A DNA stretch of 32,000 nucleotides from Cylindrospermopsis raciborskii Cr2010. Its GTDB lineage: Bacteria > Cyanobacteriota > Cyanobacteriia > Cyanobacteriales > Nostocaceae. The notes under the pieces were generated by a model. It did no database searches, had not been told where the DNA came from, and saw nothing but the letters and a program-made list of their open reading frames with translations. The position numbers were made by a program, and so were the translations under genes. The stretch covers positions 1,260,001 through 1,292,000 of the forward strand of contig NZ_CP065936.1 in the NCBI RefSeq assembly GCF_003367075.2, given 5' to 3'. Below, one piece after another: positions 1 to 19,969 of this stretch (positions are counted from its first letter, which is position 1; each line of letters starts with the position of its first letter).

Positions 1-405
1 TACCTTCTAGCCTTATTATTAGGAGTGAACTTAAATCATAGCTTTGTATCCTTACTACAAGTTATCCTAGTTGTTTTCTTGGGTGCTGGTTGTTTTTGCG
101 CCTTCTCCTTGATTATTGGCTGCCTAGTTAGATCAAGAGAAAGATTTACTGGTATTGGACAATTGATTACCATGCCATTATTTTTTGCTAGTAACGCCAT
201 ATACCCAATTTCCCTAATGCCCGATTGGTTAAAAATAATTTCCCACCTCAATCCCCTCACCTACCAGGTAGATGCTTTACGGGGAATCATGGTAGTCAAC
301 GGAACCACCAATTATGGACTTGAGTTAGATTGCGCAGTTCTTCTGTTAACATTAATAGGCTTAACCTTTATTTGTGGAAGACTTTATCCACGAGTAGTCA
401 TGTAA
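1..405 (+). CDS. ABC-2 type transporter permease, C-terminal portion (5' end outside window)
   Basis: Frame 1 is open from base 1, so the listed ORF 25..405 is only the part after an internal start. The product is a multi-pass hydrophobic protein with an NAIYPISLMPDWLKIISHLNPLTYQVDALRG segment typical of ABC-2 exporters. Family assigned from memory. Confidence 0.7.
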   Translation, partial: YLLALLLGVNLNHSFVSLLQVILVVFLGAGCFCAFSLIIGCLVRSRERFTGIGQLITMPLFFASNAIYPISLMPDWLKIISHLNPLTYQVDALRGIMVVNGTTNYGLELDCAVLLLTLIGLTFICGRLYPRVVM

Positions 406-423
406 CCAGGAGAAAAACATCCT

Positions 424-879
424 ATGTCCTTCGATAAACCCCCCCAAAAATGTGCAGCTAGGGTAATGGAAACCATTCCCCTATTAATGCGGTTTATTCG
501 AAGTGACATGCGTAATCATAGTGCTGATTCCCTCACCATTCCCCAACTGCGATCGCTCGCCTTTCTCAAACGTAACCCGGGAACTTCCCTTTCCGCAGTA
601 GCAGAGCATCTTGGTGTTACCTGTGCCACAGCTTCCACAACCATCGAAAGACTGGTACAACGCCATCTGGTACAAAGAACAGATCACCCCCAGGAAAGAA
701 GAAAAATAGTATTAAATCTCACCACACAAGGAAAATCCCTCTTAGAAGAATCTCAGGAAAAAACTCGCCTTCATATTGCCGAAATTATTGAGAGCCTAAC
801 CTCGGAAGAACTATTACAAATTGAAACAAGTCTTACTTTGCTAAAAAATGTCTTTGAAAAAACCGAATCTAACCACTGA
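424..879 (+). CDS. MarR family transcriptional regulator
   Basis: 151 aa with a winged-HTH core (LTIPQLRSLAFLKRNPGTSLSAVAEHLGVTCATASTTIERLVQRHLVQRTDHPQERRKIVLNLT). It sits between transporter genes. Confidence 0.85.
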   Translation: MSFDKPPQKCAARVMETIPLLMRFIRSDMRNHSADSLTIPQLRSLAFLKRNPGTSLSAVAEHLGVTCATASTTIERLVQRHLVQRTDHPQERRKIVLNLTTQGKSLLEESQEKTRLHIAEIIESLTSEELLQIETSLTLLKNVFEKTESNH

Positions 880-2089
880 CCATAGTAGCATCCATGACCC
901 ATTTGCTGCGCTAAGATTTAGAGACTACCGATTATTTACCATAGGAAGGATTCTGTTATTTACAGGTAACCAAATGCAAACAGTAGCCCTAGGTTGGGAA
1001 CTGTATGAACGTACCAACTCCCCTCTAGCCCTAGGTATAGTAGGACTGGCACAAGTATTACCAGTTATATTATTAACCTTAATAGCTGGACACGTAGCGG
1101 ACAAATATAATCGTCAACGCACCACTGTAGTAGCTAGCCTCCTTTTAGCTCTTTGTTCATTGGGATTAGGCATAATCTCTTATACACAGGCACCAGTATT
1201 TTTGATTTATATTTGCCTAGTCCTTACTGGTATAGCCAGAGCCTTCCTCAAACCTGCCAGCGATGCCATGATGTGGCAATTAATACCTCCACAAGTATTT
1301 ACTAATGCTGCCACCTGGGTAAGTGGTAGCTTTCAACTAGCATCAGTAATTGGACCAGCTCTAGGTGGATTTGTTATTGCCATTTTTAATAGTGCCACCC
1401 AGGTGTATATACTCACATCAATTGCATCCCTATCATTTCTAATAGCTGTAGTAGCTATGAACCCACCAGAAGGAAATCTCAGTAAAGAGCCAATATCCCT
1501 GAGATCCTTAGCAGCGGGGGCAGAATTCATTTGGAAGAATCAAATTATATTAGCTGCTATTACACTAGATCTATTTGCTGTTTTATTTGGTGGTGCAGTA
1601 GCACTATTGCCAATATATGCCAAAGACATTTTAAAAGTAGGTCCAGTAGAACTCGGATATTTACAAGCAGCACCGGCCATAGGAGCATTAATTATGGGCG
1701 CGGTGCTGATACAACTTCCACCCATTACTAAAACCTGGTCTACCCTACTATGGTCGGTTTTTGGTTTTGGGGTCACAACCATTATTTTTGGCCTATCCAA
1801 ATGGATGTGGTTATCCCTGCTCATGTTAGCTCTTGGTGGAGGATTAGATACTATTAGCGTAGTCATTCGCCACACCTTAGTACAACTAAAAACCCCGGAA
1901 GAATTAAGAGGTCGTGTGGCAGCCATTAATACAGTATTTATAACTGCATCAAATGAACTAGGAGCTTTTGAATCTGGACTAGTAGCTGCTCTAGTAGGAC
2001 CCATACTTTGCGTAGTTGGTGGAGGAATAGGTACAATTTTAGTAGTTTTAGCAACTATGGTAATTTGGCCCGAACTAAACAAAACATAA
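848..2089 (+). CDS. MFS transporter
   Basis: 413 aa with about 12 predicted hydrophobic helices and a GHVADKYNRQR loop motif between TM2 and TM3. It overlaps the MarR stop by 32 nt. Confidence 0.85.
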   Translation: MSLKKPNLTTDHSSIHDPFAALRFRDYRLFTIGRILLFTGNQMQTVALGWELYERTNSPLALGIVGLAQVLPVILLTLIAGHVADKYNRQRTTVVASLLLALCSLGLGIISYTQAPVFLIYICLVLTGIARAFLKPASDAMMWQLIPPQVFTNAATWVSGSFQLASVIGPALGGFVIAIFNSATQVYILTSIASLSFLIAVVAMNPPEGNLSKEPISLRSLAAGAEFIWKNQIILAAITLDLFAVLFGGAVALLPIYAKDILKVGPVELGYLQAAPAIGALIMGAVLIQLPPITKTWSTLLWSVFGFGVTTIIFGLSKWMWLSLLMLALGGGLDTISVVIRHTLVQLKTPEELRGRVAAINTVFITASNELGAFESGLVAALVGPILCVVGGGIGTILVVLATMVIWPELNKT

Positions 2090-2103
2090 GAGAGAGGATA
2101 ATC

Positions 2104-3390
2104 ATGACCCTTTGGCTAAAAACAAAGATATACCAGCATTTACCAGCATTTAAATCCCGAAACTTTCGACTTTTCTTTACAGGACAAACCATGTCCTTGT
2201 CAGGAACATTCATGACCCAGGTGACAATTTCTTGGGTAATCTATGACTTGACCAAATCCTCTTGGTTACTTGGGTTAACAGGATTTTTACAATTTTTGCC
2301 CACCGTACTCCTCACCCCATTTTCAGGAGTATTATGCGATCGCTGGAATCAGAAAAAGCTGCTCATACTGGTACAGATTTTAGGCCTAATGGTTTCCACC
2401 ACCTTGACCACACTGACATTTTTAGGATTGATAAAAGTTTGGTTGCTAATAACAGTAGCCATTTTAGGAGGAATGTTAAAAGGTTTAGACATGCCTGTTC
2501 GTTATGCAATAGTGATTAATACCGTAGACGAACGTAACCACTTAGGAAATGCGATCGCCCTTTATTCTGCCATGTTGAGCAGTTCCCTATTAATTGGACC
2601 AGCTGTGGGTGGGATATTGCTGGCCAGCGTAGGAGCCAAATATTGTTTTTTATACGACAGTATAAGTTATATCATTGCCCTGATAACATTAGGTGCGATG
2701 AAACTGCGACCAAAGATAGTAGTAAAGGGGGGAAAGACCGCAAACACCTGGAAAAAATTACAAGAAGGATGGGAATACGTTTTTAAAAATCTAGCAATTC
2801 GGTCAATTCTAATATTATTAACCTTTCATGGTTTAGTAGGTATTTCCTACATGGCAATCCTCCCCGTATTTGCGGGATATATTCTTCAGGGTGATGGGGG
2901 TACAATGGGAATGTTGAGTGCAGCGAGTTCCATAGGTTCCCTCATGGCTTGTGTCTATTTAAGTTTGCGCCGTGAGGTATTAGGATTAGAGAAATTAATG
3001 GCCAGTTGTCCAATCGCTATTGGGTTTGGACTAATAGCCTTTGGTTTATCCAAAACGACCTGGCTATCATTATTAGTTTTAACAGTTATTGGTGGTAGTG
3101 GTATGTTGCAGGTTTCCTGTGGCAATACAATTATTCAAACACTAGTAGAAGATGATAAACGGGGTAGGGTAATGAGTTTATACTCCTTAGCCATAATTGG
3201 CACTTTACCCCTAGGTAACTTGATTGTTGGCAGTTTAGCACAAAACATAGGTGCCCCAAACACAGTTATTGGATGTGGCATTTTTTGTTTGTTAGAATCA
3301 ATCTGGTTCAATCAACAATTACCTCTGCTTAGAGGTAAAATAAGAGAAACTTTAATTTTGTCTACTTCCACCTTAGAAACTGGAGCTTAG
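2104..3390 (+). CDS. MFS transporter (paralogous type)
   Basis: The ORF track starts at 2008, but that stretch overlaps the upstream MFS gene. The ATG at 2104 (MTLWLKTKIYQHLPAFKSRNFRLFFTGQ) gives a typical MFS N-terminus. A GVLCDRWNQKK loop motif is present. Confidence 0.85.
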   Translation: MTLWLKTKIYQHLPAFKSRNFRLFFTGQTMSLSGTFMTQVTISWVIYDLTKSSWLLGLTGFLQFLPTVLLTPFSGVLCDRWNQKKLLILVQILGLMVSTTLTTLTFLGLIKVWLLITVAILGGMLKGLDMPVRYAIVINTVDERNHLGNAIALYSAMLSSSLLIGPAVGGILLASVGAKYCFLYDSISYIIALITLGAMKLRPKIVVKGGKTANTWKKLQEGWEYVFKNLAIRSILILLTFHGLVGISYMAILPVFAGYILQGDGGTMGMLSAASSIGSLMACVYLSLRREVLGLEKLMASCPIAIGFGLIAFGLSKTTWLSLLVLTVIGGSGMLQVSCGNTIIQTLVEDDKRGRVMSLYSLAIIGTLPLGNLIVGSLAQNIGAPNTVIGCGIFCLLESIWFNQQLPLLRGKIRETLILSTSTLETGA

Positions 3391-3402
3391 CAATCTTGTA
3401 GG
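3368..3402 (+). repeat. 35-bp direct repeat, copy 1 (includes the last codons and stop of the MFS gene)
   Basis: CCACCTTAGAAACTGGAGCTTAGCAATCTTGTAGG is identical, base for base, to 5667-5701. Confidence 0.95.
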
Positions 3403-3486
3403 GTCTCTCCTTTTTGCTAGATGCTAGGCTAGATGTGAGGTGTTTGAGTGAATTTGCAGTACATGTACTTACCCATTTAATTAATT

Positions 3487-4932
3487 ATGAAAGTGGCAAT
3501 TTCTAACTTAGGCAATATTCAAAAAGCAGAAATCGAATTAAGTCCGTTCACAGTATTTATTGGTAGAAGTGGTACTGGTAAAAGTTGGACTGCTTATACA
3601 ATAGCTTCTATAGTGAGTAACTATGGTTTTAAGTCTTATCTACAAATATATGAGGACAAAATTAAACGGGAACAGTATAATTTAGAATATGATGTTTTGG
3701 AAGAAAGTATTCAGGAGTTTTTAGAATCGGGCAGTTGTCAGATAAATCTGGTCAACTTTGCACAGAAGTTTGCAGAAAAGTATGTTAATGATCTTGCTAA
3801 AATGTCCCCTAATTGGTTATCAAAATTTCTGGGAACATCCAGGCTAAATTTTAATAATCTGGAAGTTAAATTTTCTATTAATGAATTAAAACAAGACTTA
3901 GTAACCAGAATCAGGCAAATTTCATTTCAGCAAGAGATGAACTATGGGAACCAAGGGTTGAAAGTTTTTAAGCAACAGGATGAAGAAGAGATATATTTTT
4001 ATCAGGTTTACGAGGGTAATAGAGATAGTTTAAAAGATAGCTTAAAACTTCCTCCATTACTAATCAGAGACTTATTTTTAAAAACTATACTGGGAATAAT
4101 CCATGAATGTTTCTATGCTGATGTTCATATCTTTCCCACTGAAAGAACAGCATATATAGGATTTCCTTTTTCTGTGAATTTAAGCAAGCTGATGGAGCTA
4201 GAAATGGAGAAGACAATTTCACCAGAGGAACAAAAACCTATCATGGAAAACCTCATGAAATTCAAAAGATCAAAAAGATCGAGAAGTGGTATTATTGACA
4301 GTCTAACATCTGTCATAGCAAGTGCTGTAATAAAAACAGATCAAGAGAGAGATGAAGAAGCAGAAAAAGACCCACAGATAAAAAAATATATCGACTTGGC
4401 GAATTTTTTACAAGAAAATATTCTGTCTGGCCATGTTAAGTTTAATTCATCACCATTGGTAAATGAAATTATTTTTGAGCCAATCCCAGACGTGAAATTA
4501 GAAATGCACATTACCTCATCTATGATTAAAGAATTGACACCTCTGTACTTGTGCTTACGTTACTTGGCAAAACCTAATGAATTATTAGTGATTGATGAAC
4601 CGGAAATGAATTTACATCCTGCAGCACAGGTGGAAATTACCGAGTTTTTGGCTATGCTGGTGAATGCAGGAATTAAAGTCCTAATTACCACTCACAGTCC
4701 CTATATAGTCAATCATATCTCTAATTTAATTAAAGCTGCCAACTATGAGAACAAAGATACCATAAAAGAAAAATTTTATTTGGAAAGAACCGATGCTTTT
4801 ATTGCACAGAAAAATGTTTCAATATATTTATTTGAAGATGGAACAGCCAAAAACATATTGCATGAAAATGGGCAAATAGACTGGGATACTTTTGCCGATG
4901 TTTCTGACGATGTCGGTCATATTTTGTTCTAG
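3487..4932 (+). CDS. ABC/SMC-type (AAA_15/AAA_21-like) ATPase with no fused nuclease domain
   Basis: 481 aa. Walker A is FIGRSGTGKS (codons 3562-3585). Walker B is LLVIDEPEMNLHP (from 4582). An H-loop ITTHSPY and a long helical insert lie between the two lobes. This architecture resembles the ATPases of Septu, PARIS and Gabija-type systems. Confidence 0.8.
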   Translation: MKVAISNLGNIQKAEIELSPFTVFIGRSGTGKSWTAYTIASIVSNYGFKSYLQIYEDKIKREQYNLEYDVLEESIQEFLESGSCQINLVNFAQKFAEKYVNDLAKMSPNWLSKFLGTSRLNFNNLEVKFSINELKQDLVTRIRQISFQQEMNYGNQGLKVFKQQDEEEIYFYQVYEGNRDSLKDSLKLPPLLIRDLFLKTILGIIHECFYADVHIFPTERTAYIGFPFSVNLSKLMELEMEKTISPEEQKPIMENLMKFKRSKRSRSGIIDSLTSVIASAVIKTDQERDEEAEKDPQIKKYIDLANFLQENILSGHVKFNSSPLVNEIIFEPIPDVKLEMHITSSMIKELTPLYLCLRYLAKPNELLVIDEPEMNLHPAAQVEITEFLAMLVNAGIKVLITTHSPYIVNHISNLIKAANYENKDTIKEKFYLERTDAFIAQKNVSIYLFEDGTAKNILHENGQIDWDTFADVSDDVGHILF

Positions 4933-4980
4933 TTATATTTTAGTAAAAGCGTTATTTTATTAGAAAGGTGTAATTTCCAG

Positions 4981-5523
4981 ATGCTTTTTGACTATTTACT
5001 ATTATCAGGTTGTTTACTGCCAAATAGATATAGCTATTCAGAAAATGGAGTTAAGATAGAATTGCAACCCCAGAGTGGCGAGTTAATTTTGTTGTTTCAT
5101 ATAGATGATCAATCAAATAGAGATTGTAAATTCAGAAGAGTTTTGGAATTGGATAATCAGGGTATGAAAATGTGTGATTTGATAGTATTTTACGCTAAGG
5201 ATTCAACAAGAAATATATGTTTTATAGAATTAAAAGGTAGAGATATTGAAACCGCAATACAGCAGATAAATAATACATACAAGTACTTTCATGCCAAGCT
5301 AAATCAATCCAATGCATGTAATCTAGTGCCAGAGGTTAATACCAAAGCTTGTATTGTATCCAGAGCTTGTGTGCCAATAAAACCCCTAGATTCCTATACA
5401 TCATATAAAGAATTGAAATATAACTTTGGAAAGGAAAACATTTCTATTAGTAAGTCTTCAAGTTTAGATAGGTTTTTACGAGGTTTAAATTATGAACCTA
5501 AAGGTAAAAAAAATAGGAAATAA
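4981..5523 (+). CDS. Hypothetical protein, possible PD-(D/E)xK-fold nuclease
   Basis: 180 aa, 48 nt downstream of the ATPase on the same strand. It carries D66 (5176-5178) followed by a beta-strand-like ICFIELKG with E83-x-K85 (5227-5235). The spacing fits the D..(D/E)xK restriction-endonuclease core. The fold is inferred, not verified. Confidence 0.55.
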   Translation: MLFDYLLLSGCLLPNRYSYSENGVKIELQPQSGELILLFHIDDQSNRDCKFRRVLELDNQGMKMCDLIVFYAKDSTRNICFIELKGRDIETAIQQINNTYKYFHAKLNQSNACNLVPEVNTKACIVSRACVPIKPLDSYTSYKELKYNFGKENISISKSSSLDRFLRGLNYEPKGKKNRK

Positions 5524-5666
5524 TCAAAGCCTATTTAAACAAAATATGTAAAATATAGCGATATGCGATTGAATGAGATACAAGCTGACGTGGTAAGCAG
5601 ACGAGTTAACTAGAAAATTGGAATCTGGTCCCAAATACATCTCTTAGCAATAGAATATACTTTAAA

Positions 5667-5701
5667 ACCACCTTAGAAACTGGAGCTTAGCAATCTTGTA
5701 G
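5667..5701 (+). repeat. 35-bp direct repeat, copy 2
   Basis: Identical to 3368-3402. It continues directly into the hairpin repeat at 5697-5724. Confidence 0.95.
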
Positions 5702-5724
5702 GTTGGGTTGAGGGACGAAACCCA
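5697..5724 (+). repeat. Small dispersed hairpin repeat (GTAGGTTGGGTTGAG..CGAAACCCAAC family)
   Basis: GTTGGGTT / AACCCAAC forms the stem. Related copies lie at 22314-22346 (+) and, degenerate and inverted, at 7326-7350. Confidence 0.6.
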
Positions 5725-5859
5725 ACAAACTCCAATGTGGACTACAAGCAATTCACCAATGTCGCAGATTGGATTGAGGACCAACCATCTGGGATGATTA
5801 TATGATTATAGGTGTAGACTTCTCTTAGGTTTTGGAACCACACTTGGGTAATTAGAACT

Positions 5860-6447
5860 CTAAATCTCATAGTACCAAATATCTTCTTGATGGACAATAA
5901 TTCGATTAAGAGATTTTCTCTCAATGACTTTTTCCTGTTCTAATTGTCCTAGTAAGCGGGTGACAGTAACCCGAGTAGAACTGATCAACCCAGCCAAATC
6001 TTCATGAGTTAACCGCATATCAATTAAACGTCCTTGTTCTACCTGAGAACCGAATTTTCTCGACAACCACACTAATAATTGAATTAACATTGTTTCGACC
6101 TTTTTATTACCGCGAATTACCATTAATTCCTCTGCTTGCTCAATGTGCTTAAGCCAATCAGTTTTTGATTGATTCCAGTCCTGGGCAAATACCAAGCTTG
6201 CTTCTACGTTAGTTAAACATTGTGCTTGATAAGGTTTTATTCTTGTCAGGGACTGACCGACTATATCCCCCGCACCCCATAACCCCAGTGCTATCATTGT
6301 TCCATCTTCCAAATATGTATTAGTCATAACAAAACCGCTATTTATTTGCCAAAGATGACTATTATCTAATGGTAAAAGCGATCGCCGAGTAAAGTACCTT
6401 TGATGATCGTTAGCAGATAATTGACTTAAATCTGTAGATGATGGCAT
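5860..6447 (-). CDS. Crp/Fnr family transcriptional regulator
   Basis: 195 aa with an N-terminal cNMP-binding-like beta-roll and a C-terminal HTH (LTHEDLAGLISSTRVTVTRLLGQLEQEKVI). Confidence 0.85.
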   Translation of the reverse strand: MPSSTDLSQLSANDHQRYFTRRSLLPLDNSHLWQINSGFVMTNTYLEDGTMIALGLWGAGDIVGQSLTRIKPYQAQCLTNVEASLVFAQDWNQSKTDWLKHIEQAEELMVIRGNKKVETMLIQLLVWLSRKFGSQVEQGRLIDMRLTHEDLAGLISSTRVTVTRLLGQLEQEKVIERKSLNRIIVHQEDIWYYEI

Positions 6448-6547
6448 TATTACTTATATTACAATTAGTCGATTGAGTAATCGTAGTATATATTAAATTA
6501 GGATCCAAAAGATAGATTTTTAGTTTTTTTGCGCTGGGTAGACAAAA

Positions 6548-6583
6548 ATACTAAAACCCGATAGAGTTATGATATTTTAGTAT
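6548..6583. promoter_or_regulatory. Candidate operator in the Crp/Rrf2 divergent intergenic region
   Basis: A perfect 9-bp inverted repeat, ATACTAAAA (6548-6556) and TTTTAGTAT (6575-6583), sits in the 185-bp divergent promoter region. Confidence 0.25.
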
Positions 6584-6632
6584 CATCAATAAGAAAGCAA
6601 CTAGTTTCGCATAAACACCCATAGACAAATCA

Positions 6633-7115
6633 ATGAACAATAGTATTTTAAACAACGATGAAAATAGTCAAAGTTACGGACTTTTAGAACTGTCTGCCAA
6701 AGTAGAGTACGCACTGTTAGCGCTATTAGAGCTAGCTATTAATCACGGGAAGAAAGTTACTCTAACGATCAGCGACATTGCAGCCAAACAACCAATACCA
6801 GAGCGTTACTTAGAGCAGATTCTCACCCAATTACGACGTGCGGGAGTAGTGCAAAGCCAGCGGGGGTCAAAAGGGGGTTTTTTGTTGGTGCGTGAACCTT
6901 GGGAGATAAGCTTGCTAGAGATAGTTTCTTTGATAGAAGGGGAGAGGAATGAAAAGAGAAATGCCAACGTTTTGACCATAGAGAAAACCCTAGTGTGGGA
7001 AATTTGGGAGCGGGCCAACACAGCTTCAGTAGAAGTGCTAGGTCGCTACACCTTGCAGGACTTGTGTCAAGAAAGGGAAATAAGATCACAAGAAAATCCT
7101 ATGTACTATATTTAG
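6633..7115 (+). CDS. Rrf2 family transcriptional regulator (lacks the Cys ligands for an Fe-S cluster)
   Basis: 160 aa with KVEYALLALLELA..., RYLEQILTQLRRAGVVQSQRGSKGGFLL and a C-terminal MYYI. It is a clear paralogue of 25537-25986. Confidence 0.85.
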   Translation: MNNSILNNDENSQSYGLLELSAKVEYALLALLELAINHGKKVTLTISDIAAKQPIPERYLEQILTQLRRAGVVQSQRGSKGGFLLVREPWEISLLEIVSLIEGERNEKRNANVLTIEKTLVWEIWERANTASVEVLGRYTLQDLCQEREIRSQENPMYYI

Positions 7116-7325
7116 ACTATACAAAACAAGTATAATAATATATACCATAGATAAGAATAAACGTATCAATTGTTTATAAGGGCTGCAATATGATAAGGTA
7201 CGCGGGTATATTGATATCCTCAATTGGAATTAACTGCGGATCGCATCACAGTGTAATCTAGGTTGGATTTTCTCAACCCAAGGTGAGTTTAACCATGAGT
7301 TAGGGGTAATTCTTCCCGTGGGTTT

Positions 7326-7350
7326 GTTGGGTTTCGTATTAAACTCAACC
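7326..7350 (-). repeat. Degenerate inverted copy of the dispersed hairpin repeat
   Basis: The reverse complement GGTTGAGTTTAATACGAAACCCAAC resembles GGTTGGGTTGAGGGACGAAACCCAAC at 5699-5724. Confidence 0.45.
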
Positions 7351-7380
7351 TTGTATATTCAGAGAAGTGGTAGGCCATCC

Positions 7381-7420
7381 CAAAGTGGGTCTGGACACCA
7401 GTCAGAGTAAGGGACTAAAA
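7381..7420 (+). repeat. Leader box, distal copy
   Basis: CAAAGTGGGTCTGGACACCAGTCAGAGTAAGGGACTAAAA matches 8073-8112 at 35 of 40 positions in my hand alignment. Confidence 0.8.
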
Positions 7421-7812
7421 GCGATCGCATCTTACAGGTTACTATTGTAACATTTGTCCTAGTACAGTGTTTTTTTGCAGATGGGCGATTGCGAAGCACT
7501 CCTCATAGGCGATCGCTCTTACACAGTCTGTTTTCTAGACTTTACCATTTTGCTAATGTTTTAAGTTGCTATATTTATATATAGATTTTGTGGTATACTG
7601 GTGTGCTAGTAATCCACTATAAACTTTATACTTGATGCCTATTGGGTATTTTGAATCTCATGCGATCGCCAGTAGTAGTGTTAATAAAAACAGTGGTTCG
7701 GATAGTTTTTTCATCTCATCTAGAACCTGGCTGGATTTGTTCTCTAAAATCTCTAATAAACGACTGACATTAGAAAATTTAAATGTTACATTATATTGTT
7801 GGTTCTACAATA

Positions 7813-7842
7813 TTGACTATTATTCTATAAATCCTCTATAAT
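7813..7842 (+). promoter_or_regulatory. Candidate sigma70-type promoter for the CRISPR leader and array
   Basis: TTGACT (7813-7818), an 18-nt spacer, then TATAAT (7837-7842). It lies about 270 nt upstream of the first repeat and in the same orientation as the array. The context is A+T-rich, so a chance match is possible. Confidence 0.3.
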
Positions 7843-8072
7843 AGGGGAATTCCAGGATTTATTTTAAATTTTATTAACCAAGTATATTTAAAAAGTAAAG
7901 TAATACAAATGACACTAAAACTAGTAATTAACGAAGGAACTGCGAAGGTCAAGAAAAAACGCTGGAATGCCTATTATTTCGTCGGGAACCTCGCAGCCTT
8001 GTGGGGTAAGGGTTTCAGCCATTATTTTGAGGGTAGTGGAGGTGAAAAAGAGAGAAATTTTGCTGACCTTCG

Positions 8073-8112
8073 CAAAGTGGGTCTAGACACCAGTCAGGGC
8101 AAGGGCTTAAAA
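8073..8112 (+). repeat. Leader box, array-proximal copy
   Basis: CAAAGTGGGTCTAGACACCAGTCAGGGCAAGGGCTTAAAA ends 7 nt before repeat 1. It contains the palindrome GTCTAGAC. Confidence 0.8.
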
Positions 8113-8119
8113 TGGAGGG

Positions 8120-10012
8120 ACCCGCTTCCCTCTGGGAAGTGGAATCAATGGAAACTTTCGGCATAAGTTGGCGATACGATGGGTATGTACCCTCACCCGC
8201 TTCCCTCTGGGAAGTGGAATCAATGGAAACCCAATTACTTTTTTTCCATGGGGAACGGTGCAAGACTAACCCGCTTCCCTCTGGGAAGTGGAATCAATGG
8301 AAACATCGAAGTTTAGTTGATCAGAGAGCAACCAAACGTGGACTCCACCAACCCGCTTCCCTCTGGGAAGTGGAATCAATGGAAACAAGACTTCGACTTC
8401 AACGAAACGGAACTTTCGTCCCTTGGACCCGCTTCCCTCTGGGAAGTGGAATCAATGGAAACGCTTAACAATTTGTGGACACAGTTTAGGTGGGGCTTTA
8501 ACCCGCTTCCCTCTGGGAAGTGGAATCAATGGAAACCGAAATAACAAGCTCTTCTTTTTTGCTAAACATAACCCCAAACCCGCTTCCCTCTGGGAAGTGG
8601 AATCAATGGAAACCTTAACACAGACCAGACTAGACTTGACTTGACTTGACAACCCGCTTCCCTCTGGGAAGTGGAATCAATGGAAACTTCAAATAGAATG
8701 TCTCTCAGTCCTGCATCTAATAAACCCGCTTCCCTCTGGGAAGTGGAATCAATGGAAACTTATTTACTACACCACTATAAAAGTGGTGGTGAAAACACCC
8801 GCTTCCCTCTGGGAAGTGGAATCAATGGAAACATAAAAAAACCACATCAGAAATTTGTTTTTGCGTCAACCCGCTTCCCTCTGGGAAGTGGAATCAATGG
8901 AAACAAAAAATTTGTCAACTACTCGTATACTGAAAATTACCCGCTTCCCTCTGGGAAGTGGAATCAATGGAAACTATTTTTTAAACTTTATTATGGAAAG
9001 GATCAGTTAGCACCCGCTTCCCTCTGGGAAGTGGAATCAATGGAAACTTTAGTTCCAGCAAAGTATGTTAGGGAACTAGTAAGCGACCCGCTTCCCTCTG
9101 GGAAGTGGAATCAATGGAAACCACCCCTACCCCTTGCTTTACCTCTTACCCTTATTTTTGACCCGCTTCCCTCTGGGAAGTGGAATCAATGGAAACTTCC
9201 CACTTTTGGGTGGGGGCCCGGTAAGTTTGTGTCACCCGCTTCCCTCTGGGAAGTGGAATCAATGGAAACAGTGATATTACAGATACATAAATTGTAGAAG
9301 CGGTTGACCCGCTTCCCTCTGGGAAGTGGAATCAATGGAAACCCCTACGGAAACTACAGGTACATAAGGACAATAGAAACCCGCTTCCCTCTGGGAAGTG
9401 GAATCAATGGAAACTTTCCTCTGCACCCGCAAGAAAGAGAAAGGAGAAAGAACCCGCTTCCCTCTGGGAAGTGGAATCAATGGAAACTCCATAGCCTTAA
9501 TCTCCTGTTAAATTCAACTTACAACCCGCTTCCCTCTGGGAAGTGGAATCAATGGAAACTTGTTTCCAGGGTACGCTCAAACTGATTACCTTTAACCCGC
9601 TTCCCTCTGGGAAGTGGAATCAATGGAAACTTCATGAACAAACAGTAAACCAGGAGTGGTTTGCTAAATTAGAAGAGGACCCGCTTCCCTCTGGGAAGTG
9701 GAATCAATGGAAACAGGTTCAGAGCGGCCTTCTTTAAGTTCTTTTAAAGCTACCCGCTTCCCTCTGGGAAGTGGAATCAATGGAAACGTGACAACCCTCT
9801 TGAGGGATGTCGGGATTGGGAGGCAGTACCCGCTTCCCTCTGGGAAGTGGAATCAATGGAAACAAAAGTCATTAATCCTGAAGACGCTAATTTACTAAAT
9901 ACCCGCTTCCCTCTGGGAAGTGGAATCAATGGAAACTCAGCATATGACTGAGTCGTATACTGACTCAGGTCAAAAAACCCGCTTCCCTCTGGGAAGTGGA
10001 ATCAATGGAAAC
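8120..10012 (+). CRISPR. CRISPR array with 26 identical 36-nt repeats and 25 spacers (34-48 nt); no cas genes in the window
   Basis: The repeat is ACCCGCTTCCCTCTGGGAAGTGGAATCAATGGAAAC, counted by hand at 8120, 8195, 8269, 8351, 8427, 8501, 8578, 8652, 8724, 8797, 8869, 8939, 9012, 9086, 9161, 9234, 9307, 9379, 9452, 9524, 9595, 9679, 9752, 9828, 9901 and 9977. An internal CTTCCC/GGGAAG hairpin is present. The 3' end ATGGAAAC resembles the 8-nt Cas6-type crRNA tag, and the A+T-rich leader lies upstream, so the array is read on the + strand. Confidence 0.97.
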
Positions 10013-10068
10013 TTTATAGGGATAGGAGTAATATATCCCAAATTGGCGTTGCATATTTGCGGGATGAA

Positions 10069-10515
10069 TCAACTAAACGCGGGTATTACTTCATACTTTA
10101 AATAGTGAAGTAATAATTTAATTGAATACCTAAGCATATCTACAGATTTTGAATAGCATAGCGTTTTTCTATGTAGTCGCGCTAAGTAGTGACGTAAACG
10201 TGTATTTTCACCCTCTACCCTAGTCATATATGTTTTGCTCACAATATGATCCTCTGGCTGAATAAAACTCGGATAAACCCTCCACCCATCAGTAACATAA
10301 AAAAAGCATTGCCAGAGTTTAACGATGTCCCACAAAGGTTGAAATGCTTGTGAGCTGTGGTCTCCCACAACCCAAGCCAGGATATTTTTACGGAAGTGAT
10401 TTACTGCTGTCCACAACCATATTTTGTTTTTTTTTGATCCCACAAAGGTCTCCAACTCATCAAGCTCACCTACCAAGGGTGTTTCCTGGTGGAGCATCTG
10501 GAAGTATGGAACCAA
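10069..10515 (-). CDS. IS1-family transposase catalytic part (InsB-like)
   Basis: ELDELETFVGSKKNKIWLWTAVN...YVTDGWRVY...TRVEGENTRLRHYLARLHRKTLCYSKS is typical of IS1 DDE transposases. It lies in the +1 frame relative to the InsA-like ORF. Confidence 0.85.
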   Translation of the reverse strand: MVPYFQMLHQETPLVGELDELETFVGSKKNKIWLWTAVNHFRKNILAWVVGDHSSQAFQPLWDIVKLWQCFFYVTDGWRVYPSFIQPEDHIVSKTYMTRVEGENTRLRHYLARLHRKTLCYSKSVDMLRYSIKLLLHYLKYEVIPAFS

Positions 10516-10756
10516 TTTGTTTTAGCCAGTAAATAATAGTTGTATGATGAACGCCTTTATCGCGTTCAATTGCTCTAAATCCCATACCGTTAACATAAGA
10601 GCGCAGGCAACTTTGTTTAACTTCTTCTGAATAGCCTTTAGGTGGACTATAGACATCGATAAATTGACGACCACAATCAACACAAATGTGATTTTGTTTA
10701 CCTCGACGTTTGCCATTCTTTCTGATTTTGGAAGACCCGCAGTTTGGACAATGCAC
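10466..10756 (-). CDS. IS1-family InsA-like Zn-finger/HTH protein
   Basis: It starts CPNCGSSKIRKNGKRRGKQNHICVDCGRQF, followed by an HTH (GMGFRAIERDKGVHHTTIIYWLKQ). The start codon is GTG. Confidence 0.85.
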   Translation of the reverse strand: MHCPNCGSSKIRKNGKRRGKQNHICVDCGRQFIDVYSPPKGYSEEVKQSCLRSYVNGMGFRAIERDKGVHHTTIIYWLKQIGSILPDAPPGNTLGR

Positions 10757-10795
10757 AGTAGATTACCTCAATTCATACCTCTATTATGCAACGCC

Positions 10796-13116
10796 TATGG
10801 GCCCACACGGTTGTTTGTCCCCATTGTCAGTCTGTTATTCCTTTAAGTCCTAATTGGTGGTTAAGTAAAACTAGTAATTATGGTGGTAAAGGACAAGCAC
10901 GAAAAGTGACTAGTGATTGGTATGCAGTAAAACCGATTGGTAATGGTGAGAATAAGCGGGTTGATTTTGAATTAATAAGGGGAAAAAAGGGGAAGGGGAC
11001 GACGATTGCAACAGATGATGGGGAATATGATCCGGATACTACAACTACTATTGGAAGGGGGGTGGGTAAGTGTGTTAATTGTGGGAATATAATTGAGGAT
11101 GATTTTATTAAAAGGCAAGCTCAAGGTGAAGGTTTAGGCTATCAATTATATGCGGTAGCTTATAAAAAGGGAAAGGGAAGTCTGGAGTTTAGAATACCAA
11201 ATGATTTAGATATTATGGGGGTGAAAAAAGCTGAAAATTACATAGAACATGAAATTGAAGACTGGAAGATTAAAGGATTTTTTCCGGATGTAGAAGTGAC
11301 AGATGGTCAAGAAACTCATAGGTTATTTGCCATGGGTATTAATGATTGGAGTAAGTTTTTTAATCCCAGGCAACTGGTGACGCTAGTAACATATTTAGAA
11401 ATTATAAATGAAGCGAAAAATCTGATTCAATCTGAATATGAATGGGAGAAATCACAAGCTATATCAACTTATTTGGCTTTGGTTTTGGATAGATGTGTTG
11501 ATGAAAACTGTAGATTAGGACGTTGGAATCCCCCCAGAGCAGGTTCTGAAGGCGCATCATCCCAACATGCACTTAACTTGATGTGGAATTATCCAGAAAG
11601 AGCTGGTGATGGTCAATTGTGGCGATCATGTGCTGATGTTTTTGCCTCAGACTATAAAAGTCTTTGTTCATTATTAGGAAAAAATGTGGGAAAGACAGAA
11701 AAGTATGATATTCCCATAGATAAGAAATCAATTCAAATAGAGTCAGCATCAGCGGATAACTTAACACATATTGCTGATAAATCAGTACATGCAATAATTA
11801 CCGACCCTCCTTATTATTCAACCATTCAATATGCGGAACTAGCAGACTTTTTCTATGTGTGGCTAAAACGCAGTCTAGGAGATATATTCCCCGAACTTTT
11901 CTATCTGGAACTAACAGATAAAGAAAGAGAAGCTGTCGCTAATCCTTCCCGGTTTAGGAATATGGGAATATCCCCAGAAATCCTAGCGAATCAAGACTAT
12001 GAGGCAAAAATGTCCATGGCTTTTGCTGAATACCACCGGGTTTTGCGTGATGATGGAGTGATGACTGTTCAATTCAATCATAAAGATTCTGGTGCTTGGG
12101 ATATTTTAGCCAAGTCTCTGATGGATGCTGGTTTTGAAATTACAGCTTCCTGGGCGGTTAGTACAGAAAATCCTCAAAATCTCCACCAGGCTCAAAAAAA
12201 TGCGGTTTCTAGCACCGTTCTATTAGTGTGTCGTAAACGTTATCCCCATGCTGAACAAGGTTGGTGGGATGATGTGCGTCTGGAATTACGTAATACTATC
12301 TTGAGTAAAGCTCCAGAAATTGAACGCTCCCTAACTGCAGATTCTAGACCTGCACCGGATAGGGTGGAAGACCCCCGTCAAAGAATTAAGCCTCCGGGTA
12401 TTGATTTATGTTTGACAGCTTATGGTAGTGCTTTAAGTGTGTTTACCCGTTATAGTTCTATATTGGATAGTACAGGAATTAAAGTAGAGCCTAAAGCAGC
12501 TTTTGAAGAAGTGCGTCAAGCTATAGTATCATACCGATTAGAAAGGTTGTTGGCGGGGAAGGATTTTCATGGGGTGGATACTTTGACTCAATGGTATATT
12601 CTGGCTTGGGATACTTTTGAAGCGCGAGAATTTCCTTTTGATGAAGCTAGACAATTGGCTTTGGCTGTGGGGGGTTTTGATGTTTCTGATTTGGTGAAAA
12701 AATATAAGTTGTTGGATTCTGCTAGTGGTTTTTGTAAGCTGTTAACTCCAGAACAAAGGTTGAAGAAACGGGCTTTTTCTGTAGTAGATAGGGAGTTTTC
12801 TGGTGTGAATTTGGTAGATGGAATTCATGCTATAATTTGCATTTATCAAATAGAACAAAAAATAGAGTTTGTCAGAAGGTTTTTAAAAAATACTGAGTTG
12901 GTGAGTATGGATGCTTTTATGAAAACTTTTGAGTTGGTTTTGAAGGTGATTCCTCAGATAAAGGATGAAAGAAAACGAATTATAGAGGAGAAGGTGTTAT
13001 TGGATTTATGGTTGGCTATGGATGAGATAAAGGCGAAGGTGTCTTATGAACAAATGGAGTTGCCATTTAATCTATCTGGAACAAGTGATGGGCCAACTCA
13101 AATACCTCTATTTTAG
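10796..13116 (+). pseudogene. DUF1156/COG1743-type Zn-ribbon DNA methyltransferase, 5'-truncated by IS1
   Basis: The reading frame begins inside the IS1 terminal repeat (ATG 10786). Native sequence starts at the Zn-ribbon (CPHC...CVNCG). The DPPY catalytic motif lies at 11803-11814 (AIITDPPYYSTIQYAELADFFYVW). The N-terminal DUF1156 and SAM-binding (motif I) region expected upstream of the ribbon is absent. Confidence 0.8.
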
Positions 13117-13211
13117 GTGTGATGGAGGTTTTTAAAAACTGTTTTGGTCTGTGGTTGGAGCTATGGGTTATTTTTTTGGGGGAGATCTATTTATAAAAGG
13201 GTTTAGGATTT

Positions 13212-15203
13212 GTGAAAAGTCTACGGAATAAGTCTTGGAAAATCAGTTATTCTAGCAATGGTGACAATACAATTGCTGATTTCTATATTCCTGCTCTATC
13301 TGCTGCTGTTGAATATGATAGAAAGTCGGGTTTTTTTAGTAGTTACATACTGAGTAGGGTGGCTAGGGGTTTGGGAACAATGGTTGATAATGGGGGTAAA
13401 ATGCGTCTGATTATGGGATGTGAGTTTACTTCACAAGATTTGGAAGCTATCCAAAAAGGATATTCCTTGCGTGACGCTTTATGGGAGCGTTTGGATGCTA
13501 GTTTTACTCCCCCAGAAAATTTCGCTCAGTTAAAACACTTAGAAATTCTCAGTTGGTTAATTGCTAATGAATGTCTGGATATAAAAATAGCTGTTCCTCT
13601 CAAACAAAATGGTTTACCTGATGTAGAACAGTTAGATTCCAAACATATTTTTCATGAGAAGGTGGGGATTTTTACTGATATTAATGGTGATAAATTGGTG
13701 TTTAATGGGTCGAATAATGAGTCTATTGGGGGATGGGAAAAAAATGTTGAGTCGTTTCATGTGTATTGTTCTTGGGAGGGAGGAAGGGATCTAGATAGAG
13801 TGGAGGAGGAGGTTTGTCGTTTTGAGCAACTTTGGTTTGATATTTGCCCTAATGTGCGGATCTTTGATATTCCGGATGCGGTGCGAGAAAGATTACTGCG
13901 CTATACTCCTATTTGCCAACCTACTGGTGACCTAGATTTTGATTGTGTTCCAGAGGATGACTTTTCACAGATGCTACACCACCAAAAAGATATGGTAGGT
14001 GTGAGTGAAGCACGGGTTGAACAAACTCCATTTATTACGGAAGAGGAAAAACAGTGTTTCAGGGAGTTAACAAATATAGACCAAAATGCAGGGTGTTTAG
14101 ATTACTGTCTCAAATCTATACCTATTTCTCCCTGGCCACATCAAATTAAAATATTACGCCGGGTGGGAGAAACCTTTCCTACAAGTTATTTAATTGCGGA
14201 TGAGGTGGGGTTGGGTAAAACTATTGAAACAGGGTTGATTATACGTTATCTATTGTTGACAAAGAAAATAGAACGTGTCCTAATTTTGAGTCCTGCTAGT
14301 GTACAGTCACAATGGCAAAAAGCATTGAGGGAGAATTTTAATCTACATTTTTGGAGTTACACCCAAAGTTCCTTAACTGTTGAAAGTGAATTTTTAATGA
14401 AAAGGAGTGAAAGGGGTAAACAGGGGGTTTGTGGGAATCCTTGGAATGCTGAGAATTTAATACTTGCTTCTTCTCATTTAGTGAGAAGAGCTGACCGAAT
14501 AGAGCAACTTTTGGCAGCTGATTGTTGGGATCTGGTGATTCTGGATGAAGCTCATCATGCTAGAAGAAAAAGTCCCCAAAATAGAAAGGAAACTCCTAAT
14601 CTGCTTTTAAGGTTGATGCAAAGGTTAAGAGAAAAGACTCAAGCCTTAATATTGCTGTCTGCTACTCCTATGCAAATTGATGTGATAGAGATTTTTGATT
14701 TACTGAATCTTTTAGGATTAGAGGGTCATTGGAGTTACAGTGATAATTTTTGTTATTATTTCGAAAGTCTGAATCAATGTTCAGCTCTGTCCATTAAACC
14801 AGAGTTAATAGATTTTTGGCAGCTGATGTGTGGGGACTATTTTCAAAAAGGGGGAAAACCTTGCCCTAATTTACAGCAATTACTTTTACAACAAGATAAA
14901 CTGTTAGCTTATAGAATTCAGGATACTTGGCACAAATCCCAGAAAATATTGAATTATAAAAAAATCCTGGGGGATGAGTCGTTTTTGAATGGTTCTCGGC
15001 AATTTTTAACTACTAATACTCCTTTAAAGGATTTAATGTTTCGTCATACTCGTGAGACTTTAAGGCAATATTATAAAAGAGGTTTATTAAAACGGGATAT
15101 ACCTAAAAGAATCGTGCAAGATAATGCTATTGCCCTGGAACCATTCAGTGAAATTCCCCTGTATATAGCTGTTAGTGATTACGCTCGTCATTTTTATAAG
15201 TTA
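13212..15203 (+). pseudogene. PLD-nuclease / SNF2-family helicase fusion, 3'-truncated at the IS630 junction
   Basis: The N-terminal PLD-like motif is HEKVGIFTD..GSNNES (HEK at 13653-13661). SNF2 motif I is ADEVGLGKT (about 14.2 kb). Motif II is LDEAHHAR (14544-14558) and motif III is LLSATPMQ. Helicase C-terminal lobe motifs IV-VI are missing. The ORF then runs 7 codons into the IS and stops at 15224. Confidence 0.8.
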
Positions 15204-19565: not shown

Positions 19566-19969
19566 TGCCCACGGATAATAATAACTTTGCTGTTGAGTTA
19601 TATCAATGTGCCTATAAAAAAGCAGGAGAAAAGAAACGTCCTGCTGCTAAACGAATTGGCAGGTTAAAAAGTAGTATATTAGTACAGGTTCGGGAGATGG
19701 TTTATGATTGTTTGAAAGCGAATAACTACGATCCAAAGACTTTAACGCATAATAGGCAAGCTCATTATGTATTAAACGAGGAAACGGGAGTGAACCTAGC
19801 TTTATTATTTCAGACTGTACAACCGCTTTCAAAAGCAGAAAGAATAAGTAATATTGCCCAGGGAATACAAGCTATGAGTTATGAGGAATCTCATTATTGG
19901 TTTGCTAAAGTTAGTAATGGTAAACGCAGCCAAGCTTTAAGAGCAATTAGGGTTTTGTTGGGTGATTAG
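19541..19969 (+). CDS. Hypothetical small protein co-oriented with the DUF499 gene (system accessory?)
   Basis: 142 aa counted from the ATG at 19541 (the track starts at a TTG at 19511). The sequence looks like a real protein, with ..MSYEESHYWFAKVSNGKRSQALRAIRVLLGD at the C-terminus. I do not recognise a family. Confidence 0.55.
   Translation: MQEFQLRIVPTDNNNFAVELYQCAYKKAGEKKRPAAKRIGRLKSSILVQVREMVYDCLKANNYDPKTLTHNRQAHYVLNEETGVNLALLFQTVQPLSKAERISNIAQGIQAMSYEESHYWFAKVSNGKRSQALRAIRVLLGD

Follow-up and report, generated by a model that had tools for sequence, protein, structure and literature searches.

The window analysed here, a 32,000-nucleotide stretch of the genome of Cylindrospermopsis raciborskii Cr2010, contains at positions 3487 to 5523 two adjacent genes that an earlier note had proposed, from the sequence alone, as an undescribed defence module. 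The locus thus raises the question of whether the pair is a new kind of system or a relative of one already described. Both open reading frames were found as that note gave them. Gene A (3487..4932, + strand) encodes an OLD/ABC-type ATPase of 481 amino acids that is PD-T4-4_A-like according to Pfam and PADLOC searches and alignment A4, and gene B (4981..5523, + strand) encodes a predicted PD-(D/E)xK nuclease of 180 amino acids, as indicated by alignments A1/A2 and an AF2 model. Both genes are intact and read in the same direction; A comes first, and B follows after a gap of 48 nt. Judging from the numbers of homologues, more than 800 for gene A and 481 cluster representatives at E ≤ 1e-3 for the gene B family, both are real genes and not chance open reading frames.

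All three ATPase motifs attributed to gene A were located. The first residue is 26 for GRSGTGKS, 366 for LLVIDEPEMNLHP and 400 for ITTHSPY, giving a Walker A motif at residues 26-33 (K32), a Walker B motif at residues 366-378 (D370, E371) and an H-loop histidine at H403; K32, D370, E371 and H403 are invariant columns in the ATPase alignment A4. In addition, FPTER is conserved at residues 216-220 (R220), and a C-terminal extension of about 70 residues (~410-481) is strongly conserved in the same alignment. The Pfam search matched gene A to AAA_15 over residues 2-408 (1.1e-19) and to AAA_21 without any fused effector domain, in agreement with the earlier note.

The best PADLOC match of gene A was PD-T4-4_A (E = 9e-55, 185 bits), with residues 1-455 aligned to positions 1-418 of the 460-position profile, and the second-best was PDC-M47A (7e-44). 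Its matches to AriA, PtuA, GajA and Old were far weaker or partial. Gene A is also collinear with a verified PD-T4-4_A protein, at 26% identity from end to end (BLASTP E = 8e-24). Among solved structures, the nearest were Old and PtuA, which matched the C-terminal part only (E ~1e-7). A tblastn search of plasmids with the ATPase mostly matched the generic C-terminal half, and one match yielded a true PD-T4-4 reference pair.

Gene B carries CDLIVFYAK from residue 65 and ICFIELKG from residue 79, which places the putative catalytic residues at D66, E83 and K85. The suggestion that these residues lie in predicted beta strands held: the AF2 model (pLDDT 84) puts them within or next to strands 67-73 and 76-85. 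Across 81 diverse relatives (alignment A2), the sole invariant residues are E34, D66, E83 and K85; D42, C65 and Q95 are near-invariant, and the C-terminal tail is basic. Gene B has no Pfam family, and neither Pfam nor PADLOC searches returned TOPRIM, HNH or RloB matches, as the earlier note had anticipated; a helicase match was likewise absent from these searches of gene B and of the cassette in which the pair lies. A fold search of the gene B model against the PDB gave weak matches to restriction endonucleases and UL24 and none that was significant (best 9e-3), and a PD-T4-4_B model used as a control performed no better (best 0.049). A sequence search of the PDB with the gene B family returned zero matches, and no solved structure is a good match for either of the two proteins.

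The relationship of gene B to the nuclease of PD-T4-4 is more distant than that of gene A to the ATPase. Gene B had no match at E ≤ 1 to the PD-T4-4_B models of PADLOC, and its only PADLOC match was PDC-M29B (7e-5, over residues 56-108); by comparison, the verified PD-T4-4 reference pair scored 3e-123 for A and 1e-43 for B. The HMM searches that had been proposed as a check thus supported the expected ATPase families and PD-T4-4_A for gene A but gave only this one hit for gene B. Even the Nostoc orthologue of gene B (48% identical) reached only 3.8e-3 against PD-T4-4_B, and a true PD-T4-4_B relative scored 7e-15 against the PD-T4-4_B profile but only 8e-3 against the gene B family profile. The nuclease subfamily to which gene B belongs is not detected by existing PD-T4-4_B models, and because gene B fails those models the pair was not counted as PD-T4-4 proper.

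Several comparisons nevertheless tie the two nuclease families together. The verified PD-T4-4_B family has the ordered set E30, D55, C88-D89, D106-x-K108 and Q120-x2-N123-S124, which is the order seen in the gene B family, and an hhalign comparison of the two families aligned 76 columns in which the motifs of the two coincide (E = 1.9e-4, probability 47%). In the AF2 models of gene B and PD-T4-4_B, the predicted order of secondary-structure elements is collinear through the core. Furthermore, 38 of the 81 gene B relatives match PDC-M29B in PADLOC and some match PD-T4-4_B or PDC-M47B, and metagenomic B proteins (e.g. at loci L087, L075 and L083) match both profiles and so form a bridge between the families, scoring ~1e-6 against the gene B family profile (among 1,121 ORFs) and ~1e-10 against PD-T4-4_B/PDC-M47B. 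From these comparisons gene B would be a remote homologue of PD-T4-4_B, a conclusion held with moderate, not overwhelming, confidence.

These results bear directly on the proposal that the pair is a new, undescribed system, in which the ATPase would resemble known sensors only generically and the nuclease would be an unrelated new effector. Such a proposal draws on the lack of a Pfam family or a direct PD-T4-4_B match for gene B and of a good structural match for either protein, and on the expectation that PADLOC as it stands would probably call no complete system here. Against it stand the full-length match of gene A to PD-T4-4_A, at 185 bits as against ~80 for AriA and NsnB in PADLOC; the motif order, profile-profile alignment and bridging sequences that link gene B to PD-T4-4_B; and the several published descriptions of an ABC ATPase paired with a PD-(D/E)xK nuclease. 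A new system is therefore considered very improbable, and the designation of the module as undescribed was given up, since pairs of this architecture have already been named and tested. At the level of kind, the pair matches a named system, an outcome that the earlier note had itself listed as counting against its proposal.

The association of the two genes is strict. A gene A homologue is located directly upstream of the gene B homologue in 17/17 loci anchored on B, and for close homologues of gene A, gene B is directly downstream in 25/26 loci, so that the co-conservation that had been put forward as a check was found. Sequence identity in A rises and falls with that in B (r = 0.84, n = 15; collapsed Spearman 0.96, n = 7). 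A genome scan for relatives of gene B was run with alignment A1. The clade to which the pair belongs is mainly cyanobacterial, comprising Nostocales, Oscillatoriales and some Gammaproteobacteria, with a patchy distribution. A scan of viral contigs gave three weak loci, in none of which was a B-family gene adjacent; tblastn of gene B against phage genomes found nothing, and a literature search for the system in Cylindrospermopsis yielded no specific report among the titles and abstracts listed.

This distribution also speaks to whether the pair could serve in housekeeping DNA repair or recombination, in which a RecF/SbcC-like ATPase would be the partner of a NucS-like nuclease. Gene A shows weak similarity to SMC_N/RecF in Pfam (E = 0.02), a protein 99% identical to B is named "DUF91 domain-containing protein" in one database, the Pfam DUF91 family being that of NucS, and mutL is located 15 kb from the pair. 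A repair function is scarcely credible given the patchy distribution of a low-G+C, repeat-flanked unit that may be present, absent or truncated within a single species, whose neighbours vary among genera without any conserved third gene, and whose best family matches in PADLOC are all defence systems.

The surroundings of the pair point to a mobile unit. A perfect 35-bp direct repeat, CCACCTTAGAAACTGGAGCTTAGCAATCTTGTAGG, was identified by a repeat search on both sides of the pair, with the left copy at 3368..3402, where it takes in the final 7 codons and stop codon of the MFS transporter gene that lies upstream, together with 12 further nt, and the right copy at 5668..5702; two matches were obtained in 0 of 100 shuffles. 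In C. raciborskii, this repeat also occurs at loci L019 and L021-L026, but not at L020. Between the left repeat and gene A lies an untranslated leader of 84 nt (3403..3486, + strand) in which a promoter is presumed; scanning the cassette gave no excess of promoter-like sites over shuffled sequence, and the terminator-like matches were uninformative. Directly after the right repeat is a hairpin, GTTGGGTT-N9-AACCCAAC (5702..5726, + strand), which probably terminated transcription of the transporter gene until the insertion moved it away. The fold of the 3' UTR is not unusual (z = 0.7), and an Rfam search of positions 3000-10500 gave no match. The G+C content is 0.32 inside the cassette versus 0.38-0.40 in its flanks.

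These features suggest that the pair is carried on a horizontally acquired cassette of 2.3 kb. The view that the pair is the cargo of an inserted cassette was thus strengthened by the perfect repeat and the low G+C content, while the insertion itself is one that we infer, because an empty site was sought within Cylindrospermopsis and none was found; in all 12 contigs whose MFS2 is identical, the ATPase gene occupies this position at the places displayed. The repeats at the Cr2010 locus and at locus L032 may be target duplications of 35 to ~80 bp. A direct repeat at L016 was considered as a third such duplication and rejected as weak, since it is a REP-like palindrome of which there are further copies close by. 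The defence context described for the locus was also borne out: a CRISPR array with 26 repeats (8120-10013) lies 2.6 kb downstream of the pair, and the restriction-modification-like island corresponds to an Hma-type methylase/helicase/DUF499 system (10786-19565).

In part of the C. raciborskii strains the nuclease gene has been lost, either by an identical 609-bp deletion, whose right edge coincides with the last 13 nt of the right repeat (GCAATCTTGTAGG, 5690-5702) and which is carried by L019, L020 and L026, or by a premature stop that leaves 137 aa; the pair is intact at L021-L025 and in the complete C. raciborskii/C. curvispora genome CP060822. In the natural variants the nuclease is deleted or truncated, with the called ATPase intact at L019, L020 and L026. 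The possibility that L019 and L020 represent the ancestral state, from which the intact locus was derived, was rejected because both keep gene stubs: each retains the first 33 codons of B, and remnants of MFS2 are present as its N-terminal part in L020 and its 3' end in L019. Since several strains of the same species are without the nuclease, the bacterium can do without the system, which may carry a cost.

Loss of the nuclease from loci that keep the ATPase would also be expected of a selfish, toxin-antitoxin-like addiction cassette in which a toxin, the nuclease, is held in check by the ATPase and is the first component to be lost, the pair mainly stabilising its own mobile DNA and not acting in phage defence. 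The mobile appearance of the cassette fits this explanation, as does the carriage of true PD-T4-4 pairs by small Col-type plasmids (L018) and a temperate phage (L111). Set against it, PD-T4-4 and WonAB protect against phages, and the ATPase activity of WonAB is needed for protection and not only for neutralisation. Addiction as the main role is therefore regarded as improbable, and because abortive-infection systems share the same genetics, it overlaps with the anti-phage explanation more than it replaces it.

The best explanation is that the pair is probably a PD-T4-4-like anti-phage module of the class formed by an OLD-type ABC ATPase and a small PD-(D/E)xK nuclease, the named members of which are PD-T4-4, WonAB, PDC-M47, PDC-M29 and HEC-02, carried on a horizontally acquired cassette. 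The pair is a divergent, mainly cyanobacterial relative of PD-T4-4/WonAB and not a new kind of system. The observations behind this assignment are the homology of gene A to PD-T4-4_A, the remote homology of gene B, the conservation of catalytic residues, the strict linkage and co-divergence of the two genes, and their setting, a cassette in a defence island.

By analogy with WonAB and PD-T4-4, an anti-phage function of the Cr2010 pair, together with complex formation, a trigger, a substrate and an abortive outcome, may be proposed. The ATPase would dimerise through its ABC head, and its conserved C-terminal extensions would keep the nuclease in an inactive complex. Strong conservation of the last 70 residues of gene A is compatible with nuclease docking there. 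The variable inserts of the ATPase would sense a cue of phage infection, with sensing linked to the binding or hydrolysis of ATP (K32, E371 and H403), whereupon the nuclease (E34, D66, E83 and K85) would be licensed to cut nucleic acid, and phage development would be halted at the cost of host growth, i.e. by abortive infection. A more speculative, three-part reading, which we regard as doubtful when taken jointly, is that the clade forms a subtype of distinct function, having a trigger or substrate of its own; that the unit is a recombinase-less mobile cassette of 2.3-2.4 kb and two genes that enters immediately behind the 3' end of host genes and duplicates the target there; and that the nuclease is repeatedly lost in wild C. 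raciborskii strains because of an autoimmunity cost, one that shapes how susceptible the individual strains in a bloom are to phage.

Although the overall importance of the pair is modest, the comparison has some practical consequences. Because the PADLOC B models miss the nuclease of this clade, censuses of cyanobacterial defence systems probably under-count it, which a model built from the gene B family would fix. C. raciborskii is a toxic bloom former whose strains have an intact, nuclease-deleted or nuclease-truncated locus, and this variation offers a ready-made comparison for the effect of the locus on cyanophage susceptibility. The comparison also narrows the catalytic core of the "novel REase" to E…D…C-D…(E/D)-x-K…Q-x2-N-(S/T), which is useful for mutagenesis in PD-T4-4 and WonAB. 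The name comes from an "OLD-ABC ATPase + novel REase" operon mentioned in the WonAB study (PMC12137116), which gives it as reference 33, cited elsewhere as Krishnan et al. 2020.

Among known systems, several use as their sensor an ATPase of the same OLD-type ABC clade as gene A, namely PARIS (AriA/AriB), Septu (PtuA/PtuB), Gabija (GajA/GajB) and P2 Old. Their effectors, fused or separate, are TOPRIM (AriB and the C-terminus of GajA) or HNH (PtuB), and Gabija adds a helicase (GajB), none of which is present in the Cr2010 cassette. The earlier statement that the known partners of such ATPases are HNH or TOPRIM nucleases was incomplete, as PD-(D/E)xK partners had already been named in PD-T4-4 and WonAB. 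The PADLOC "phage defence candidates" PDC-M29 and PDC-M47, as well as HEC-02, an ABC ATPase with a NERD nuclease (bioRxiv 10.1101/2024.01.29.577857), have the two-gene logic in common with the Cr2010 pair. PDC-M29A matches only part of gene A (1e-16, best stretch residues 368-458), and the nuclease of HEC-02 is of the NERD type, unlike gene B; therefore, the pair falls between the existing models and inside none of them.

WonAB, described in 2025 from the WASA-1 prophage of Vibrio cholerae, consists of an ABC ATPase and a PD-(D/E)xK nuclease; neither gene is dispensable, and nor are the motifs of the ATPase or the lysine of the nuclease (PMC12137116). [quoted passage not shown] By its published description, WonAB resembles the Cr2010 pair in combining an OLD-type ABC ATPase that has no fused nuclease with a small PD-(D/E)xK nuclease, but it has an upstream regulator gene, which the Cr2010 cassette is without.

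PD-T4-4 itself, found in E. coli ECOR58 and published as "ATPase, nuclease", defends E. coli (Vassallo et al. 2022, PMC9519451) and has been listed among "nuclease-NTPase" systems (bioRxiv 10.1101/2025.07.10.664194). Its hosts are enterobacteria or vibrios, whereas those of the Cr2010-type pair are cyanobacteria; gene A scores 185 bits on PD-T4-4_A versus 364-614 for true members; and gene B, at 180 aa versus ~198 aa for PD-T4-4_B, differs beyond the core, above all in its C-terminus. Both systems consist of two genes on the same strand, ATPase then nuclease, over a similar length (1,973 bp versus 2,037 bp here), an order also seen in the PD-T4-4 loci L018 and L111; their nucleases share the E…D…C-D…(E/D)-x-K…Q-x2-N-(S/T) order. 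Both are carried on mobile DNA, true PD-T4-4 pairs making up most of the cargo of very small Col-type plasmids in the case of L018 and residing in a temperate phage in that of L111.

Both open reading frames that an earlier note on this DNA had proposed were borne out, one encoding a 481-aa ATPase (3487-4932, + strand) and the other, after a gap of 48 nt, a protein of 180 aa (4981-5523, + strand). The motifs of the ATPase lie where that note had placed them, with Walker A (GRSGTGKS), Walker B (LLVIDEPEMNLHP) and the H-loop (ITTHSPY) starting at residues 26, 366 and 400, respectively. In the small protein, CDLIVFYAK and ICFIELKG start at residues 65 and 79, and the residues singled out earlier are thus indeed D66, E83 and K85. 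Pfam analysis of the ATPase identified AAA_15 (residues 2-408, 1.1e-19) and AAA_21 and no other domain, and gave no match for the 180-aa protein. Homologues of the ATPase number more than 800, and an exhaustive profile search for the small protein retrieved 481 cluster representatives at E <= 1e-3 and 280 at <= 1e-10. As judged from sequence, both are real genes.

Co-conservation of the two genes, on which the proposal of a functional pair depended, was confirmed. The ATPase gene was located directly upstream, on the same strand, in 15/15 genomic loci retrieved via the small protein and in two found via the ATPase, and these 17 loci (17/17) range over Nostocales, Microcoleus, Chroococcales and two Gammaproteobacteria. 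Among 26 close ATPase homologues on metagenome contigs with at least 450 nt downstream, 25 were followed by a nuclease gene of the window family, that is, the relatives of the small protein. For 35 more distant ATPase homologues, the downstream gene matched the window family in 21 cases, the PD-T4-4_B family in 15, both in 10 and neither in nine. The identities of the two proteins co-vary (Pearson 0.84, n = 15; Spearman 0.96, n = 7, with syntenic Microcoleus loci collapsed), and no third conserved gene was found beside the pair across genera.

PADLOC analysis indicated that the ATPase matches the defence model PD-T4-4_A best, with an end-to-end alignment (E = 9e-55; residues 1-455 against profile positions 1-418 of 460), followed by PDC-M47A (7e-44), whereas AriA, NsnB, PtuA, GajA and Old gave much lower scores or partial coverage. 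The PD-T4-4 pair on a 4.8-kb E. coli Col plasmid (L018; 3e-123 and 1e-43 on the PADLOC models for A and B) served as reference, and its A protein is collinear with the window ATPase over 472 residues (26% identity, E = 8e-24), an alignment that takes in the inserts and the C-terminal extension. The C-terminal 70 residues of the ATPase are strongly conserved. A second true PD-T4-4 pair was found in a P2-like Vibrio phage (A, 6e-185; B, 6.5e-18).

The HMM search thus supplied a full-length named relative for the ATPase and no PD-T4-4_B match for the nuclease: every PD-T4-4_B model missed the small protein when it was searched alone, and its sole PADLOC match was PDC-M29B (7e-5, residues 56-108). 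Several comparisons nevertheless tie it, at the level of sequence and predicted structure, to the PD-T4-4_B family. Among 81 diverse relatives only E34, D66, E83 and K85 are invariant, with D42, C65 and Q95 nearly so, and N98 and T99 are invariant in 12 close relatives; the true PD-T4-4_B family (21 sequences) has a matching ordered set, E30, D55, C88-D89, D106-x-K108, Q120 and N123-S124. Profile-profile alignment of the two families (E = 1.9e-4, probability 47%, 76 columns) placed the motifs F-x-(I/L)-D, C-D-L, (E/D)-L-K and Q-(I/V)-x-N-(S/T) in register. AlphaFold2 models of the window protein and of PD-T4-4_B (pLDDT 84 and 83) show the same succession of elements, namely helix 2-8, a hairpin, a strand after the invariant D, the (E/D)-x-K strand, a long Q…N helix and a strand, and differ solely at the C-terminus. 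PDC-M29B was matched by 38 of the 81 relatives (best 4e-9), and PD-T4-4_B (best 2.4e-5) or PDC-M47B by a few. Furthermore, 10 metagenomic loci found via the ATPase carry bridging genes, whose products match both the window-family and PD-T4-4_B profiles; in PADLOC analysis of four of these, L087, L075 and L083 scored about 1e-10 on PD-T4-4_B or PDC-M47B, and L086 only 1.9e-5.

Calibration with a true PD-T4-4_B relative, which scored 7e-15 against the PD-T4-4_B profile and only 8e-3 against that of the window family, indicated that by sequence the small protein is a separate clade within the same superfamily, not PD-T4-4_B in the strict sense. With regard to the restriction-endonuclease-like core proposed earlier, the fold searches returned mostly PaqCI, Mus81, BamHI, Nt.BspD6I, FokI, BstEII and XPF from the PDB (best 9e-3), and UL24/ORF20, restriction endonuclease, Holliday-junction resolvase and VRR-NUC among the BFVD matches (best 6.4e-4). 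These matches of the predicted model are suggestive, not significant; since the PD-T4-4_B control model fared no better (best 0.049), weak fold matches are typical of the whole family. As strict PD-T4-4 assignment calls for a B protein that matches a PD-T4-4_B model, the pair was not filed there. We place it instead among the established ABC ATPase plus PD-(D/E)xK nuclease modules, as a divergent member that is closest, of the systems named so far, to PD-T4-4.

The pair is bracketed by a perfect 35-bp direct repeat (3368-3402 and 5668-5702), with no further copies elsewhere in the window and two matches in no shuffled sequence. The repeat duplicates, with sharp boundaries, the 3' end of the MFS gene that lies upstream. 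G+C is 0.32 between the repeats and 0.38-0.40 outside, and was below that of the flanks in all three repeat-flanked cassettes examined. No recombinase or integrase is encoded within the two-gene unit, a putatively inserted cassette of 2.3 kb. An unrelated metagenomic locus (L032) has a similar duplication round its own pair (2846-2866 and 5267-5287), which is imperfect, about 80 nt long, spans a gene 3' end and terminator, and has copies 2,421 bp apart.

On C. raciborskii contigs with identical MFS2, the second gene of a tandem MFS_3 transporter pair (2008-3390), the gene order MarR, MFS1, MFS2, repeat, ATPase, nuclease, repeat, Crp, Rrf2 was found in five of the six places shown, the sixth (L026) having no nuclease gene. 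Five loci (L021-L025) have the intact cassette and both repeats. L019, L020 and L026 have in common an identical 609-bp deletion (window 5081-5689), which removes the nuclease gene past codon 33, ends precisely at the final 13 nt of the right repeat and leaves the ATPase called at 481 aa. Because L019 and L020 keep gene stubs, the intact state is that of the window. In other strains, premature-stop nuclease alleles of 137 aa (P0330, P0333, P0334 and P0336) keep the catalytic core and lack the C-terminal 43 residues. Between L019 (CP091284.1) and the window (1-10013), the flanks are 84-87% identical and the cassette, including the deletion junction, 99.9-100%, which suggests that the cassette was recently transferred or recombined between diverged lineages.

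MFS2 is itself partly or wholly deleted in L019 and L020 (window 2082-3211 and 2267-3401 absent, respectively), the L020 junction lying at the extreme end of the left copy of the repeat. In two strains the ATPase is 498 or 486 aa long rather than 481 (L021:6384-7880; L023:6384-7844) because of indels in the cassette, seen as 51 and 27 gapped positions when the DNA sequences are aligned; neither product has a recorded Pfam match.

The surroundings of the pair, a cassette near a CRISPR array and a restriction-modification-like island, were as first described. The array (8120-10013) comprises 26 copies of a 36-nt repeat, ACCCGCTTCCCTCTGGGAAGTGGAATCAATGGAAAC, with no Rfam match and no cas genes among the window ORFs scanned with Pfam or PADLOC; it is also found in L019, with extensive repeat-level similarity. 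The island proved to be an Hma-type system (10069-19969), consisting of an HmaB DUF1156 methylase (10786-13116), whose profile match begins only at position ~330, a 670-aa PLD/SNF2 helicase fragment (13212-15224), an HmaC DUF499 ATPase (16212-19565) and then a DUF7680 gene (19511-19969). From its sequence it appears to be broken by insertion sequences, IS1 (transposase 10069-10515, with a zinc-ribbon ORF upstream), which abuts the methylase gene, and a DDE_3 transposase (15739-16242), between the helicase fragment and HmaC. The Nostoc sp. PCC 7524 locus is a further defence neighbourhood for the pair; there (L001, 1-2311) a BsoBI-type restriction endonuclease gene and a second gene with a faint N6_N4 methyltransferase match lie ~3.7-6 kb upstream of the orthologous pair.

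In the mechanism we propose by analogy with relatives, the ATPase would dimerize via its ABC head and hold the nuclease through its conserved C-terminal 70 residues. A phage-derived cue, sensed via the variable inserts and coupled to ATP binding or hydrolysis, would license the nuclease, which might then halt infection at the expense of the growth of the cell. Chiefly, the analysis points to an annotation gap in cyanobacteria, defines the nuclease core more sharply and shows that a harmful-bloom species naturally harbours both intact and nuclease-less alleles.

While the architecture of an ATPase with a small nuclease stood, its novelty did not, as PD-T4-4 and WonAB-type pairs have already been published. 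The earlier assumption that HNH and TOPRIM nucleases are the only known partners was likewise incomplete, since PD-T4-4, WonAB and HEC-02, a tested ABC ATPase plus PD-(D/E)xK (NERD) nuclease pair (10.1101/2024.01.29.577857), have PD-(D/E)xK-type partners. PD-T4-4, recovered in an E. coli functional selection and catalogued as 'ATPase, nuclease', has two ORFs over 1,973 bp; for its B protein, HHpred found only weak matches to PD-(D/E)xK families, Herpes_UL24 and PDDEXK_9 among them (PMC9519451). A 2025 preprint placed PD-T4-4 among complex-forming PD-(D/E)xK 'nuclease-NTPase' systems (10.1101/2025.07.10.664194). WonAB of V. cholerae, an OLD-type ABC ATPase with a PD-(D/E)xK nuclease, depends on each of its two genes, on the ATPase motifs and on the lysine of the nuclease, and acts by lysis-independent abortive infection after the onset of phage DNA replication, with no simple DNA degradation (PMC12137116). 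Its authors related it both to PD-T4-4 and to a so-called 'OLD-ABC ATPase + novel REase' operon, which they found in 0.96% of the bacterial genomes surveyed (PMC12137116).

As to vehicles, the L018 pair (pSCU-105-5, 1352-3350) is the main cargo of a non-mobilizable Col-type plasmid, and related ATPases are encoded by Klebsiella plasmids 4.3-7.9 kb in size; PD-T4-4 may commonly travel on small plasmids. In the temperate, P2-like Vibrio phage 1.202.O (L111, NC_048066.1, 2501-4532), the true PD-T4-4 pair lies between the repressor and integrase genes, a placement that resembles the one published for WonAB in the WASA-1 prophage, where a regulator lies upstream.
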